Virus record (IMG/VR): IMGVR_UViG_2563366976_000009
Location: 1-30,850 of that record
Strand: one strand, 5' to 3'
DNA: 30,850 bases
Source of the DNA: a virus
Lineage: Duplodnaviria > Heunggongvirae > Uroviricota > Caudoviricetes
The position numbers and the translations under genes are program-made. Below the pieces are notes generated by a model that saw only the letters and a program-made list of their open reading frames with translations, was not told the DNA's origin and ran no database searches. Shown here in pieces: positions 25,560 to 30,850 of the stretch (its first letter is position 1; every line of letters begins with the position of its first letter).

Positions 25560-26096
25560 TCAAACAACCCACCAGTTTGCCTGATTGGATACCAGCCTTG
25601 CAGTTTTTATGGAATTAATTATGCCATGCTCAAGAGCCTTGTTAGCATCCAAAATGGTCGAGTCTGCTATCAGGGATGCCCACCTAATATGGGTTCCGAT
25701 GTCGATATTGAACGTCTCAACGAAGCGATCAAGATCGTTATCGAGGCATTTCCCGTACTCTCTCAATCTGGCATGGTCGGCGGCTGGGGAGGCAAAGCAC
25801 CATAATAGAGGATGTAACAGGAATCTTGATAATGGGTTTGCGAAACGTTCTGAGCCAGCCAGGAAAACGATATTAGCTATGGATTCAACATTGCTTATGT
25901 TGTGAGTTCTAACGGTAACAGGGAGTGACTTAAGAAAGTTATACGCAGTAAAGCCAGCGGCAGTTTCCCCTCCCTGACTTGATATATGGATATTTAATTC
26001 AGTTGCGCCTTGAGATAATGCGGTGAGACAGTGGTTCTGAAGTTGCCCAACAGTGGCAGTGTTAACGGGGCATAAGAAATGAATTGTGTGCAGCAT
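25560..26096 (-). CDS. ClpP-fold (Clp protease-like) serine protease, 178 aa, translationally coupled to mnt.
   Basis: …IHISSQGGETAAGFTAYNFLKSLPVTVRTHNISNVESIANIVFLAGSERFANPLSRFLLHPL… aligns with the ClpP core (INSPGG…TAG…GQAASMG…LPNSRxMIHQP). The Ser and His positions appear conserved. Its ATG overlaps the mnt stop (TAATG). Confidence 0.6.
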   Translation of the reverse strand: MLHTIHFLCPVNTATVGQLQNHCLTALSQGATELNIHISSQGGETAAGFTAYNFLKSLPVTVRTHNISNVESIANIVFLAGSERFANPLSRFLLHPLLWCFASPAADHARLREYGKCLDNDLDRFVETFNIDIGTHIRWASLIADSTILDANKALEHGIINSIKTARLVSNQANWWVV

Positions 26097-26350
26097 TATT
26101 TATCATCCTTGCCATAAATCTTTTTAAGTGTCTCAAACACAACGGCCTTGAACTGCTCTGCTTGCTGATCAGCCAAGCGTTCAGCTTCGTCTCGATAGCC
26201 TGCAATCGGTGATGGCTTTGAGAGAGCATCCTGAACGATTTGTAATAACTCAGAGTTCATTGACCTTCCGTTAGCCTCTGCTCTTAATTTCAATTTTTCT
26301 CTTACTTCCAAAGGCATACGGAAGTTAAAGTGCGGATCGTTTCTAGCCAT
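26096..26350 (-). CDS. mnt: Mnt repressor (ribbon-helix-helix), P22 Mnt-like.
   Basis: MARNDPHFNFRMPLEVREKLKLRAEANGRSMNSELLQIVQDALSKPSP… near-identical to remembered P22 Mnt. Confidence 0.85.
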   Translation of the reverse strand: MARNDPHFNFRMPLEVREKLKLRAEANGRSMNSELLQIVQDALSKPSPIAGYRDEAERLADQQAEQFKAVVFETLKKIYGKDDK

Positions 26351-26440
26351 GCCATCACCCCAAGTTAGTGTATTGACATGATAGAAGCACTCTACTATAT
26401 TCTCAATAGGTCCACAGTGGACCTATATTGTGAGGTAAAT
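26351..26440. promoter_or_regulatory. immI control region. Pant (-35 TTGACA 26373-26378, -10 TATATT 26396-26401); Arc operator ATGATAGAAGCACTCTACTAT (26378-26398); Mnt operator palindrome AGGTCCACAGTGGACCT (26408-26424); divergent Pmnt on the minus strand (TTGAGA-17-TATCAT).
   Basis: Sequence matches the remembered P22 Pant/Oarc/Omnt arrangement; hexamers and palindromes read directly. Confidence 0.7.
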
Positions 26441-26599
26441 ATGAAAGGAATGAGCAAAATGCCGCAGTTCAATTTGCGGTGGCCTAAAGAAGTATTGGAT
26501 TTGGTGCGTAAGGTGGCGGAAGAGAACGGGCGATCTGTTAACTCTGAGATTTACAAGCGAGTGTTGGACAGCCTGAAGAGAGAGGGGATAACGGTATGA
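26441..26599 (+). CDS. arc: Arc repressor (ribbon-helix-helix).
   Basis: MKGMSKMPQFNLRWPKEVLDLVRKVAEENGRSVNSEIYKRVLDSLKREGITV matches remembered P22 Arc. The ORF-track start at 26378 is an upstream extension through the operator region. Confidence 0.9.
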   Translation: MKGMSKMPQFNLRWPKEVLDLVRKVAEENGRSVNSEIYKRVLDSLKREGITV

Positions 26600-26817
26600 G
26601 GTTTATTGAGGTTGATGAGATTGGCTATGAGAATGCACTTGGTAGAGGTAAATCTTTAGTTAACATTGATGGCATTGAATCGATAAGGAGTGGTGAATTT
26701 ACGGAGATCAGAATGATGTCAGGCGGAATCATTCCTTGCCGTGATTCAGTAGAGTCAATCAAATCAAAAATGAGTGGTCAGTGGCTTTATAGCTACAGTG
26801 ACTTACAAAAACAGTGA
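26596..26817 (+). CDS. Hypothetical 73-aa protein inserted between arc and ant, with ATGA overlap to the arc stop.
   Basis: ORF read from the sequence; no family recognised; not part of the canonical P22 immI gene set as I remember it. Confidence 0.4.
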   Translation: MRFIEVDEIGYENALGRGKSLVNIDGIESIRSGEFTEIRMMSGGIIPCRDSVESIKSKMSGQWLYSYSDLQKQ

Positions 26818-26880
26818 AGCCCCAACTGCGGGAACAGTCAGGGCTTCGGTATCGTAAAACCACGCATAGGAATTAACGAC

Positions 26881-27804
26881 ATGACGAGTGTAGCAATTGC
26901 AGAACATACAATCAACGTTCCATTCCACGGAACAAATCTCTTTTTGGTCAGCATTAACAATGAACCTTACGTTCCTATGAAACCCGTTGTAGAAGGCATG
27001 GGTATGGTTTGGGCTGCTCAATTTGTTAAATTAAAACAGAGATTTGTCAAAGGTATTTCGGAAATCGAAATACCTTCTGCTGGCGGTAAACAGTTAATGA
27101 TATGCCTTGCCTTTCGTAAGTTTGCGGCTTGGCTTTCAAGCATTCAGCCAAACAAAGTCCGCCCTGAAATCCGCGACAAGGTAATCCAGTATCAGGAAGA
27201 GTGTGACGATGTGCTCTACGAGTACTGGACTAAAGGCCATGTGGTTAACCCGCGCAAAGCTAAAAAGGCATTGCCGGGGAAAATCACCACTGAACAGCAG
27301 GAAGCCATTAAACAACTCGTCATGAGTCGCGGTCAGTCTCTGCCAAAAGAAAAACAGGCTAAGGCGATGATCACCATGTGGTCGTCACTGAAATCCCATT
27401 TTGGGTGTTCATACAAAGAAATCAGCGAGGAGCAGTTTACCGAAGCTCTGTCACTTGCTGCTCGCGTTCCGCTTGAAGGTGAGTTCATTGGCAAACAAGA
27501 GAAGAAAACCAACGAGCTTTCTGCAAAAGAAGCAAACAGCCTTGTATGGTTATGGGATTATGCCAACCGTTCACAGGCATTATTCCGCGAATTGTATCCG
27601 GCGCTAAAACAAATTCAATCGAACTATTCAGGCAGATGTCATGACTGCGGTTATGAGTTCTCCCGTATTATCGATATGGCGAGAGATGTTTTAATCAACC
27701 ATACACGAGATGTTGATATTAATGAGCCAGGCGGACCGACGAACCTTTCAGCATGGATAAGACTTAAGAATAAAGAATTACCTCCTTCAGTACATAACTA
27801 CTGA
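26881..27804 (+). CDS. ant: Antirepressor Ant.
   Basis: N-terminal …VPFHGTNLFLV…PYVPMKPVVEGMGMVW…PEIRDKVIQYQEECDDVLYEYWTKG parallels remembered P22 Ant; position after arc. Confidence 0.8.
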   Translation: MTSVAIAEHTINVPFHGTNLFLVSINNEPYVPMKPVVEGMGMVWAAQFVKLKQRFVKGISEIEIPSAGGKQLMICLAFRKFAAWLSSIQPNKVRPEIRDKVIQYQEECDDVLYEYWTKGHVVNPRKAKKALPGKITTEQQEAIKQLVMSRGQSLPKEKQAKAMITMWSSLKSHFGCSYKEISEEQFTEALSLAARVPLEGEFIGKQEKKTNELSAKEANSLVWLWDYANRSQALFRELYPALKQIQSNYSGRCHDCGYEFSRIIDMARDVLINHTRDVDINEPGGPTNLSAWIRLKNKELPPSVHNY

Positions 27805-27822
27805 CAGATAACCAACGCAACG

Positions 27823-27847
27823 ACCCAGCTTCGGCTGGGTTTTTTTA
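27823..27847 (+). terminator. Rho-independent terminator after ant.
   Basis: ACCCAGC-ttcg-GCTGGGT stem followed by TTTTTTT. Confidence 0.7.
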
Positions 27848-27904: not shown

Positions 27905-30850
27905 ATGAGAGACATTACAGCCAATGTGATCGTATCGATGCCTTCGCAACTCTTCACTATGGCGCGTTCTTTTAAAGCCGTAGCCAATGGCAAAATTTAT
28001 ATCGGTAAAATTGACACTGACCCTGTAAATCCTGAAAACCAGATTCAGGTTTATGTGGAAAACGAAGACGGCTCTCACGTTCCTGTTTCGCAACCAATCA
28101 TCATTAACGCTGCTGGATATCCTGTATATAACGGACAGATTGCCAAATTCGTAACTGTGCAAGGCCATTCTATGGCTGTTTATGATGCGTATGGTGCGCA
28201 GCAGTTCTATTTTCCGAATGTGCTGAAGTATGATCCTGATCAGTTACGGCGGCAATTAGAAGACCCAGATGGAGCGAATAAATACCCAAAACTTCAGATA
28301 GCAAGATGGAGAGACAGTTATGATGTAAGAGGTTGGGGGGCTATTGGTGATGGTGTTCATGATGATACATCAGCTCTATCAGAATTACTTTCTGTTGCAA
28401 CAGGTGGTGAAAAGATAGATGGGCGAGGGCTTACTTTTAAAGTATCAAATCTTCCGGATGTCAGTCGATTTAAAAATGCTCGTTTTTTATTTGAGAGAAT
28501 ACCGGGTCAGCCTCTTTTTTATGCTTCTGAAGATTTTATCCAGGGAGAGTTATTTAAAATTACAGATACACCGTGGTACAACGCCTGGACGCAGGATAAA
28601 ACGTTTGTATATGACAATGTCATCTATGCGCCTTTTATGGCTGGAGACCGCCATGGTGTAAATAACCTCCATGTTGCATGGGTTCGCTCAGGAGATGACG
28701 GGAAGACCTGGACAACGCCGGAATGGCTTACAGATTTACATGAAAACTATCCCACAGTTAACTATCACTGCATGAGTATGGGGGTTGTCAGAAATCGCCT
28801 TTTTGCTGTAATTGAGACGCGGACCGTGAGAGGAAATAAACTGCAGGTTGCAGAGTTGTGGGATCGCCCAATGAGTCGCAGCCTTCGCGTTTATGGTGGT
28901 ATAACGAAAGCAGCAAATCAGCAAGTCGCTTATATTCGCATTACTGATCACGGATTATTTGCTGGTGATTTTGTCAACTTCTCAAACTCTGGTGTTACAG
29001 GTGTTACCGGGAATATGACGGTGACTACTGTTATTGATAAAAATACTTTTACAGTTACGACGCAAAATACCCAGGATGTGGATCAGAATAACGAGGGTAG
29101 ATACTGGAGTTTTGGTACATCATTTCACTCGTCACCATGGAGAAAAACCAGTCTTGGAACTATTCCTTCTTTTGTTGACGGAAGCACTCCTGTTACTGAG
29201 ATTCACAGTTTTGCGACGATTAGCGATAACAGTTTTGCTGTTGGCTACCATAATGGTGATATTGGTCCACGCGAGCTTGGGATACTCTATTTCTCTGATG
29301 CTTTCGGTTCTCCTGGTAGCTTTGTTCGCAGACGCATACCTGCAGAATATGAGGCGAATGCATCTGAGCCATGTGTAAAATATTATGATGGCATTCTGTA
29401 TCTGACGACCAGGGGGACATTAAGTACTCAACCCGGTAGTTCATTGCACAGAAGCTCTGATTTAGGTACATCATGGAATTCTCTTCGCTTCCCAAATAAT
29501 GTTCATCACTCAAACCTTCCTTTTGCCAAAGTTGGCGATGAGCTGATTATTTTTGGCAGTGAGCGCGCATTTGGTGAGTGGGAAGGAGGAGAACCTGATA
29601 ACCGTTATGCAGGAAATTATCCAAGAACATTTATGACCAGAGTTAACGTCAATGAGTGGAGTCTGGATAATGTAGAGTGGGTTAATGTTACTGATCAGAT
29701 TTATCAGGGCGGAATAGTTAACTCTGCGGTTGGTGTTGGTTCAGTTTGTATCAAAGACAACTGGCTGTACTACATTTTCGGTGGGGAAGACTTTCTAAAC
29801 CCATGGAGCATAGGGGATAACAACAGAAAATATCCTTATGTTCACGATGGTCACCCGGCTGATTTATATTGTTTCAGGGTGAAAATCAAACAGGAAGAAT
29901 TTGTTTCAAGGGATTTTGTCTACGGAGCCACTCCTAACAGAACGCTTCCTACTTTGATGTCGACGTCAGGCGTGAGGACGGTTCCTGTACCCGTTGATTT
30001 CACAGATGATGTTGCCGTCCAGTCACTGACTGTCCATGCAGGTACATCAGGACAAGTTCGCGCGGAAGTCAAACTTGAGGGTAATTACGCCATTATTGCG
30101 AAGAAAGTACCGTCTGATGATGTTACCGCTCAGAGATTAATCGTTAGCGGCGGTGAAACAACGTCTTCAGCAGATGGTGCAATGATAACGTTGCATGGTT
30201 CCAGAAGCAGTACTCCACGTCGCGCGGTATATAACGCACTCGAACATCTTTTTGAGAACGGAGATGTTAAACCTTATCTTGATAATGTAAATGCTCTTGG
30301 TGGTCCGGGAAACAGGTTCTCGACAGTTTATCTTGGCTCCAATCCTGTGGTTACCAGTGACGGAACATTAAAGACAGAGCCGGTCTCTCCTGACGAAGCA
30401 TTGCTGGATGCCTGGGGTGACGTCAGGTATATCGCTTATAAATGGCTGAACGCTGTCGCTATAAAGGGGGAAGAAGGGGCGAGGATACATCATGGTGTAA
30501 TCGCGCAGCAACTTCGTGATGTTCTTATTTCTCACGGACTCATGGAAGAAGAAAGCACAACATGCCGCTATGCCTTTCTTTGCTATGACGATTATCCCGC
30601 AGTATATGATGACGTCATTACTGGCCAAAGGGAAATGCCGCTGACTGATAATGACGGGAGCATCATTGTTGATGAGGATGATAATCCAGTGATGGTAATG
30701 GAAGACATCATTGAGCGCGTTGAAATAACGCCAGCAGGATCTAGATGGGGGGTCAGACCTGATCTCTTATTCTATATCGAGGCGGCATGGCAGCGCAGAG
30801 AAATGGATAAGATAAAAGCTAGGTTAGACTTAATAGAAGGGAAGCACTAA
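27905..30850 (+). CDS. Tailspike: N-terminal P22-type head-binding domain fused to an endosialidase (endo-N-acetylneuraminidase) with a C-terminal intramolecular chaperone domain.
   Basis: N-terminus [11 protein letters not shown]…[38 protein letters not shown]…[15 protein letters not shown]…NVLKYDPDQ matches remembered P22 gp9 residues 1-110. GDGVHDDT motif, two Asp-boxes (SGDDGKTW near 28687-28710; SSDLGTSW near 29450-29475), and a C-terminal …[12 protein letters not shown]…[15 protein letters not shown]…WGVRPDLLF…AAWQRR… chaperone domain, as in K1-phage endosialidases. Stop codon at the last 3 nt of the window. Confidence 0.85.

Follow-up and report, generated by a model that had tools for sequence, protein, structure and literature searches.

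A 73-codon gene in an exchangeable slot between arc and the sar terminator of a P22-type immI region

The window analysed here, the whole 30,850-nucleotide (nt) stretch of IMG/VR virus record IMGVR_UViG_2563366976_000009, carries a P22-type immI region in which an open reading frame of 73 codons (ORF73) lies between the repressor gene arc and the antirepressor gene ant. Many natural relatives of P22 bear an extra gene welded to arc in this manner, drawn from at least eight unrelated families and set between the same two junctions. We consider it probable, although well short of assured, that ORF73 is a real gene in a bounded and exchangeable slot of the Pant operon and that it serves an early accessory function instead of controlling Ant.

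ORF73 as a coding gene between arc and ant

The immI region of P22 is a textbook regulatory circuit with Arc, Mnt and sar as its model molecules, and its Pant promoter has two repressors, Mnt in lysogens and Arc following infection. A region of the same type spans approximately 26.1-27.8 kb of the window (Table 1). It contains divergent mnt and arc-ant units, ribbon-helix-helix repressors of the Arc/Mnt type and an antirepressor with P22_AR domains. It also resembles P22 in gene order, in its divergent promoters, in the sar RNA with its terminator, and in its placement between the ejection-protein genes and the tailspike gene, which bounds it downstream.

The window was aligned against P22, epsilon34, Emek and vB_EcoP-611R6 (611R6). 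It tracks P22 through Pant and most of arc (approximately 92% DNA identity over Pant and arc, and approximately 92% between the Pant/Pmnt/Oarc region and its annotated P22 counterpart), diverges in the last arc codons, and returns to identity exactly at TGAAGCCCC. No gene separates arc from sar in P22 and epsilon34, whereas in the window the last arc codons are replaced (...LDSLKREGITV in the alignment, against ...ESFKKEGRIGA in P22) and a 73-codon gene is added. Relative to both phages, this is a clean replacement or insertion of approximately 227 bp (roughly 26588-26814), reaching from the last arc codons to the hairpin, and the arc-ant interval measures 281 nt compared with 68 nt in P22. 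DNA homology with 611R6 starts inside the arc 3' end (query position 206). An earlier note, made from the letters of this DNA, had placed between arc and ant a 73-residue frame starting on the arc stop codon and had taken it as extra relative to P22, and the sequence, the ORF list and the alignments with P22 and epsilon34 agree with it on both points. The ATG at 26596 shares three bases with the arc stop (ATGA, a 4-nt overlap), and the TGA stop (26815-26817) takes in the first base of an inverted repeat that precedes ant.

ORF73 matched the profile of PHROG 11805, whose function is not assigned, with an expectation value (E) of 2.8e-53 over residues 1-73 and profile positions 1-73 of 73. It is 100% identical to orf73 of Salmonella phage Emek and 96% identical to a protein of Escherichia phage vB_EcoP-611R6 that is annotated as hypothetical, as ORF73 also is in E. 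coli prophages. As to the P22-like references, a matter that the same note had raised, the frame is not standard in P22, yet it is annotated in Emek, 611R6 and E. coli prophages, and it is one of several genes that can fill the slot. It was detected in 51 of 5426 complete E. coli genomes, every time overlapping an Arc gene, and in 15 IMG/VR contigs, and each of the 20 loci examined had it between arc and ant. Otherwise the family is nearly absent. A word-indexed search of 5.8 billion proteins returned 7 clusters, all with at least 90% identity, and an exhaustive HMMER search of 1.84 billion representatives gave one further true homologue, P0008, with 65% identity and an 11-residue loop insertion. 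The second match of that search was a spurious repeat protein and was dismissed. No ORF73 homologue was found in GTDB at one genome per species.

The locus of P0008 (L020) is laid out in the same way: mnt and arc are present, stop and start overlap in GTGA, the TGA lies on the sar hairpin, and ant is represented by a further allele. The ratio of nonsynonymous to synonymous substitution rates (dN/dS) between ORF73 and P0008 was 0.21 with a dS of about 1.2, and close alleles gave ratios of 0.17-0.56. Conservation of the reading frame among relatives, on which the earlier note had made its view depend, was evident at the 65% identity of P0008 as well as in 19 related loci with 8 distinct nucleotide alleles, where the frame was unbroken. 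Judged by these comparisons, ORF73 is a real protein-coding gene, beyond a chance open frame.

A non-functional or decaying frame, merely hitch-hiking between conserved recombination flanks, would be in keeping with so tiny a family (the 7 clusters and the one extra representative), with the truncated, deleted and read-through variants known for ORF73 (P0006, P0007, P0002) and with the frameshift of the neighbouring cassette type c67 in many O157-type prophages. We nevertheless regard this explanation as improbable, as dN/dS is 0.21 while synonymous divergence is saturated, the frame, the start overlap and the stop are preserved at 65% amino-acid identity with the 11-residue insertion falling in a predicted loop, and a compact fold is predicted with confidence.

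Among the damaged variants in public data (P0002, P0006 and P0007), a 90-residue form without the TGA reads through the sar hairpin. The others are a 48-residue frameshifted form and a 45-residue form with an in-frame deletion of residues 34-61.

Scans of the window revealed no promoter between Pant and ORF73 and no rightward terminator 3' of ORF73, because the T run of the hairpin lies only on the minus strand. A moron, in the Hendrix/Juhala definition quoted in PMC2629481, is defined by its own promoter and terminator and by expression independent of the operon, and ORF73 lacks these. Since it has no promoter or terminator of its own and its start overlaps the arc stop, ORF73 forms an operon-internal cassette rather than a self-standing unit. 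It matched no family in PADLOC or NCBIfam and showed no homology to known Acr or Aca proteins.

An exchangeable slot with fixed junctions

IMG/VR viral contigs were scanned for the arc-tail pattern AGCYTGAAGAGAGAGGGGRT, which yielded 97 loci (including L025-L121), all with the pattern. In 96 of the 97 loci, the sar hairpin lay 178-274 nt beyond the pattern, and the interval was a single ORF running from (A/G)TGA at the arc stop to the TGA at the hairpin. These slot ORFs fall into at least eight unrelated families, four of which are ClpX-type zinc ribbons and two SwrD/FlbD-like. Among the zinc ribbons, c60 (3 loci, e.g. L089) is a stand-alone ClpX-type zinc finger that matched Pfam zf-C4_ClpX above threshold (7.6e-11). 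Weak ClpX zinc-finger matches were given by c63 (2 loci, E 0.2) and c74 (8 loci, E 0.0015). The zinc ribbon c67 (24 intact and 11 frameshifted loci) has PHROG 5259 in common with c60 and c63, and its PHROG 7150 was also matched by c63 at 5.7e-8. The SwrD/FlbD-like cassettes are ORF73 itself (14 loci) and c80 (3 loci, e.g. L034), which matched Pfam FlbD at 1.7e-4, aligned with FlbD in hhalign with a probability of 90% and an E of 1.7e-6, and bears the NCBI name FlbD family protein. Finally, c57 (20 loci, e.g. L025) has a GTG start, 57 residues, no Pfam match and a match to PHROG 17642 (function not assigned), and c89 (11 loci, e.g. L041) has a transmembrane segment and a coiled coil. The slot is empty in P22 and epsilon34.

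The left boundary of the slot consists of the last approximately 40 nt of arc (...DSLKREGITV), with their GAGGGG Shine-Dalgarno sequence and (A/G)TGA stop/start overlap, and the right boundary consists of an A run, the TGA and the sar terminator hairpin. Likewise, in lambdoid prophages of O157:H7 and O145 and in the P22-like prophage of UTI89, the left junction reads ...GAGAGAGGGGATAACGGTATGA and the right junction TGAAGCCCCAACTGC, with unrelated sequence between them. UTI89 contains an intact 67-codon zinc-ribbon ORF (L023 1500-1703) without RefSeq annotation. In the O157/O145 genomes examined, the 67-codon cassette has lost its frame to a single additional T in a T5/T6 run directly after codon 6. 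Sequence of this cassette was present in 373 of 5426 complete E. coli genomes, 304 of them at least 99% identical to the frameshifted O157 form.

Frameshifted copies of the 67-codon cassette occur, for example, at L021 2541-2744 (O157:H7 PV15-279), in L022 (O145 RM9873) and in 11 IMG/VR loci such as L027. Lambdoid prophages of the O157/O145/O55 type carry the whole mnt-arc-sar-ant module between tail genes L and K.

ORF73 was found joined to at least four Arc N-terminal alleles, always with one Arc tail, to at least six ant 5' alleles and to mnt alleles of 35-100% identity. In general, mnt, ant, the tailspike and the ClpP-like neighbour gene are each combined freely with the different cassette types. 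No strict correlation between cassette and ClpP-like gene was seen, the latter being present in 1 of 11 ORF73, 11 of 16 c57 and 7 of 20 c67 loci. Because unrelated cassettes share the junctions and reassort, ORF73 represents one of the alleles of a hypervariable position whose junctions are fixed.

The very different Arc N-termini that carry the common tail include a P22-like one (MKGMSKMPQFNLRW...), that of Emek (MQGARKMPQF...), MEKEVSRILVRMPQSLKD... and MKVKTLRMPEKLEK... (the window and loci L001, L002, L014 and L020). Whenever a cassette follows, the apolar Arc tail is (L/M/I)DSLKREG(I/V)(T/A/M)(V/A), and cassette-free P22 and epsilon34 end in EGRIGA.

The region between the ejection-protein and tailspike genes has been named the ant moron and is in rapid genetic flux (Villafane et al. 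2008, PMC2629481). ORF73 belongs to this known class of variable accessory genes. Its existence as a hypothetical protein, the flux of the ant moron and the ordinary sar terminator were already known; what is new here is the fixed-junction cassette slot and the SwrD/RemA-like fold proposed for the ORF73 cassette. No account of an arc-ant gene or of a fixed-junction slot was found in the searchable literature, subscription-only papers lying outside the search. As a hotspot of small early proteins of phages, the slot is compact and easy to search; it includes stand-alone ClpX zinc fingers and SwrD-like proteins, and its products are good candidates for host-takeover or counter-defence factors.

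The sar RNA and the control of ant

The repeat in front of ant (GAAGCCCC...GGGCTTC at 26816-26847) had been noticed earlier as a long-loop structure ending at 26846, and the insertion had been suspected to displace or alter sar-type control of ant. The repeat is indeed present, with its end one base further on, at 26847. The repeat has no long loop: in the minus-strand RNA, 14 base pairs make up the stem and 4 nt the loop, and a U run comes next. This hairpin is the terminator of sar itself, and sar is therefore not displaced. The hairpin is identical to that of epsilon34, and the GenBank records of P22 and epsilon34 annotate the sar terminator there.

As listed in Table 1, sar is full-length, and it folds into the two expected hairpins and a U tail (-29.8 kcal/mol, z -5.4). 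The U tract is templated by the last Lys codons of ORF73 (AAA AAC AG, about 26812-26806), the ant ribosome-binding site (TAGGA, 26867-26871) lies under stem-loop 1, and the hairpin stands 32-33 nt from the ant ATG, as in P22. The insertion is therefore placed wholly past the sar 3' end, and the ant ribosome-binding site with its antisense partner and the hairpin-ATG spacing are all P22-like. RF00262 was matched over its full length and above the gathering score in every cassette type tested, and 611R6 pairs ORF73 with a sar, a Psar and an ant 5' end identical to those of epsilon34.

The same note had proposed a search for a leftward promoter in 26818-26880. The promoter scan detected no promoter-like site in this interval, and P22 has none there either; Psar is instead placed inside ant, as in P22. 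The Psar candidate scores 8/12, which is under the scan threshold. By hand count the -35 of P22 Psar (GTGTTA) has 3 of 6 matches, and P22 Psar would miss the same threshold, on a hand count only, P22 not having been scanned. A TAnnnT hexamer resembling the Psar -10 was present at ant +7 to +12 in 94 of 94 slot loci.

The lengthening of the arc-ant interval from 68 to 281 nt might suggest that the insertion perturbs or replaces sar control of ant, but we find this scarcely credible: a full-length sar with terminator, U tract and anti-ribosome-binding-site loop lies directly 5' of ant at the P22 spacing, the insertion is entirely past its 3' end, and ORF73 coexists in 611R6 with the epsilon34-identical sar. 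As far as sequence can tell, ORF73 leaves sar control of ant intact.

Predicted fold of ORF73

The AlphaFold2 model of ORF73 reached a predicted local distance difference test score (pLDDT) of 83 and a predicted template modelling score (pTM) of 0.70. It comprises strands 2-8 and 18-23, a one-turn helix 24-26, strands 27-32, 36-40 and 45-48, and a helix 52-60. Meanwhile, three family members had FlbD (PF06289) as their sole Pfam match (E 0.025-0.063), hhalign with an alignment of 34 FlbD sequences gave an E of 0.0059 over strands 2-5 and the helix in the expected register, and a weak match to PHROG 8458 ("flagellar protein") was obtained. Crystal structures of SwrD, which belongs to the FlbD family, show hexameric rings with a RemA/LytTR-like fold and an Asn15-xxx-Ile19/Glu20 ring motif (bioRxiv 2026, PMC13232269). 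Its nearest structural relatives are RemA, AgrA-LytTR and ComK (PMC13232269). Since the topology of SwrD is the same and its relatives are RemA and AgrA-LytTR, the two weak signals, the FlbD match and the RemA/AgrA-like model, agree with each other.

ORF73 resembles SwrD/FlbD, known from flagellar operons of Bacillota and spirochaetes, in size and in predicted topology (strands 1-2, 3-10 turn, strands 3-5, helix). It shares the ring-centre Asn-xxx-Ile-Glu: N23, I27 and E28, which correspond to SwrD Asn15, Ile19 and Glu20, the residues that keep the SwrD ring together, are invariant in the ORF73 family together with T36, and the RemA-type insertion is missing from both proteins. Unlike SwrD, ORF73 joins strands 1 and 2 by a long loop and bears an aromatic C-terminal tail that is conserved (SGQW.YSY.DL), and it lacks the peripheral Pro-Asp-Thr motif and Glu23, the latter being replaced by R31 and Pro26-Asp27 by E34-F35, with Thr28 kept as T36. 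A further difference is the setting of its gene, an immunity operon of phages from enterobacteria, and enterobacteria lack SwrD. On the model, ORF73 probably has a SwrD/RemA-like fold and may form rings, which would place a predicted SwrD/RemA-type fold in enterobacterial phages.

Several observations weigh against this assignment. The alignment behind the structure model held 7 sequences in two effective clusters. The FlbD scores of the three members (14.6, 14.0 and 13.3 bits) are below the gathering score of 24.7, the hhalign match to FlbD has a probability of 6%, and all sequence links between ORF73 and FlbD are below significance. Foldseek against the PDB gave no match with an E below 0.6; the top template modelling scores and probabilities were those of RemA and AgrA. 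ORF73 is accordingly not a demonstrable member of the FlbD family by sequence. A profile search of the sequences of solved structures yielded only FAIM1 (E 0.077), which was rejected as a chance match.

RemA, a biofilm regulator of the DUF370 family, is an octameric DNA-wrapping ring (PDB 7BM2/7BME, PMC8481266). Strands 3 and 4 of ORF73 are joined by a 3-residue turn (S32-G33-E34 region) where RemA has approximately 25 extra residues, and with so short a turn the DNA-binding helical insertion of RemA is missing. ORF73 is also acidic, unlike RemA, and hhalign of its profile against RemA aligned only the C-terminal part, without significance (E 0.23). Binding of DNA in the manner of RemA is thus unlikely on the model. 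Nor is ORF73 a LytTR domain (approximately 100 residues, ten strands), of which it has half the size.

Might ORF73 be a functional FlbD/SwrD homologue acting on the host flagellar motor (MotA/MotB stators) during infection? Its only Pfam match is FlbD, the hhalign (E 0.006) and PHROG 8458 results point the same way, the sister cassette c80 is a credible FlbD relative, and the hosts are flagellated. However, we judge the idea a long shot, given that the Pfam score is under the gathering cut-off, that the Pro-Asp-Thr motif and Glu23 are missing (E34-F35-T36 and R31), that ORF73 is found outside any flagellar (fla-che) operon, that SwrD is absent from Escherichia, and that the SwrD-MotA interaction could not be validated (PMC13232269).

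Proposed expression and role

ORF73 would be transcribed from Pant and translated by coupling to arc. Such coupling, which the earlier note had also proposed, is plausible because ORF73 overlaps the arc stop by 4 nt, and the overlap persists in the homologue of 65% identity and throughout the eight cassette families. With Pant transcription and coupling to arc, ORF73 should be made in the same early burst as Arc; it would then be shut off by Arc and remain silent in lysogens under Mnt, and it would also be present on late read-through transcripts. The pairing of sar covers the ant ribosome-binding site further downstream and reaches no more of ORF73 than its last codons, so that ORF73 should escape sar, and control of ant should stay P22-like. 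The product may oligomerise into a ring and act through a protein partner that it binds, which is what one would expect since the ring motif is kept while the Arg-rich insertion of RemA and the Pro-Asp-Thr of SwrD are absent. Because unrelated cassettes can take its place and it reassorts with alleles of arc, mnt and ant, ORF73 would have an autonomous early accessory role and probably does not regulate Ant. As a conserved coding gene in the Pant unit it probably does add a function to the immunity operon, as had been suggested. A role in host takeover, counter-defence or exclusion is a guess made by analogy.

Other points count on the opposite side. No homologue of established function bears on the role of ORF73, and we infer both its oligomerisation and its translational coupling. 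Because the pattern search required one particular arc tail, the census is biased toward that tail. The tie to this tail, which we read only as a recombination flank, could be functional.

It appears unlikely to us that ORF73 is a third immI regulator, either a RemA/LytTR-type DNA binder on Pant/Pmnt or a modulator of Arc or Ant. Such a role would suit its position within the arc-ant operon, overlapping the arc stop, although the circuit works without ORF73 in P22 and epsilon34 and ant retains its own ribosome-binding site and sar. The best structural matches (RemA and the LytTR domains of AgrA and ComE) are DNA-binding proteins, but the helical insertion of RemA with its DNA-binding arginines is absent (PMC13232269), and ORF73 is acidic and half the size of LytTR. 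It is always accompanied by one Arc C-terminal tail, yet the same slot with the same tail also carries unrelated zinc ribbons and a membrane protein, and ORF73 reassorts with at least six ant, at least four arc and diverse mnt alleles. A precedent does exist in the immI region of P1, where icd, also encoding 73 residues, is coupled to ant and required for ant expression, but ORF73 has no sequence similarity to P1 Icd.

The P1/P7 region (c4 antisense RNA - icd - ant1/ant2) shares with the window a 73-codon gene, an antisense-controlled antirepressor operon and a 4-nt stop/start overlap. The arrangement is different: in P1 the antisense RNA targets the ribosome-binding site of icd, and icd is coupled to ant, whereas ORF73 is no part of the sar target and its coupling would be to arc. 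P1 Icd carries the annotation of a cell-division inhibitor. Homology between it and ORF73 was rejected, since BLASTP produced no alignment with an E of 100 or less.

For the accessory role that we favour, anti-CRISPR and anti-defence (acr-aca) operons provide an analogy. In these operons variable small acr genes stand beside a conserved aca autorepressor under a strong early promoter. The window likewise has an early promoter of great strength, Arc as conserved autorepressor and, next to it, a slot that in related phages holds many unrelated small genes; unlike in acr-aca operons, Arc precedes the variable gene instead of following it. By this analogy we tentatively picture the arc-to-sar interval as a dedicated exchange site for small effectors that would be made in the Pant burst and throttled by Arc. 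ORF73 might then be an effector with a SwrD-like ring directed at a target of the host or of a rival prophage, and the ClpX zinc fingers of the same slot might serve as decoys for ClpX-dependent recognition; the picture as a whole is possible, though we lean against it.

Features and neighbouring genes of the window

Table 1. Features of the immI region and flanking genes (window coordinates; aa, amino acids)
Feature	Position	Strand	Description and evidence
ORF73	26596..26817	+	73-aa acidic protein, isoelectric point 5.0, GC 38.7%; PHROG 11805; predicted SwrD/RemA-like fold
arc	26441..26599	+	52-aa Arc repressor, begins MKGMSKMPQFNLRW...; Pfam Arc 2.2e-26
Left junction of slot, within arc 3' end	26555..26595	+	Includes Shine-Dalgarno-like GAGGGG at 26582-26587, 8 nt 5' of the ORF73 ATG
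sar antisense RNA, full length	26813..26879	-	Rfam RF00262, 76.6 bits (gathering score 43), E 4.4e-16, model positions 1-68/68
sar terminator hairpin	26847-26816	-	Terminator scan; inverted repeat
Psar, putative	26915-26887	-	-35 TTGATT, 17-nt spacer, -10 TACACT; within ant codons 3-12; positional homology with annotated P22 Psar
ant	26881..27804	+	307-aa antirepressor; Pfam P22_AR_N 7e-40, P22_AR_C 2.4e-28; PHROG 245 at 2.4e-95
Terminator-like hairpin between ant and tailspike gene	27822..27841	+	Terminator scan; position of the annotated ant terminator of P22, epsilon34 and Emek
Pant/Pmnt overlapping divergent promoters and operator region	26373..26406	both	Pant (plus) TTGACA-17-TATATT, scan score 11/12; Pmnt (minus) TTGAGA-17-TATCAT, scan score 10/12
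mnt	26096..26350	-	84-aa maintenance repressor; ORF list; Pfam Arc 3.4e-27 and Repressor_Mnt 3.8e-12
ClpP-like gene	25560-26096	-	178 aa; Pfam CLP_protease 2.2e-11; NCBIfam ClpP-related head maturation protease domain 5e-13
Tailspike gene	27905-30850	+	Continues past window end
ant-moron ORF, 201 aa	24171-24776	-	
ant-moron ORF, 61 aa	25297-25482	+	Coiled-coil-like

The stop codon of mnt overlaps the start of the downstream ClpP-like gene by 1 nt (TAATG). Because its start lies on the mnt stop codon, the ClpP-like gene is probably co-expressed with Mnt from the prophage. It takes the place of P22 orf59a/sieA and is found in only some related ant morons; its product had no match in PADLOC.

The tailspike gene encodes a P22 head-binding domain, then a complete endosialidase (End_N_terminal, End_beta_propel at 5e-233, End_beta_barrel and End_tail_spike), and then a Peptidase_S74 chaperone domain. 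As the tailspike carries endosialidase domains, the window comes from a K1-capsule-specific P22-like phage or prophage of the CUS-3/UTI89 type.

The two further ORFs of the ant moron, of 201 and 61 residues, gave no significant family in Pfam, NCBIfam or PADLOC. The 201-residue ORF recurs in several related loci at 88-99% identity.

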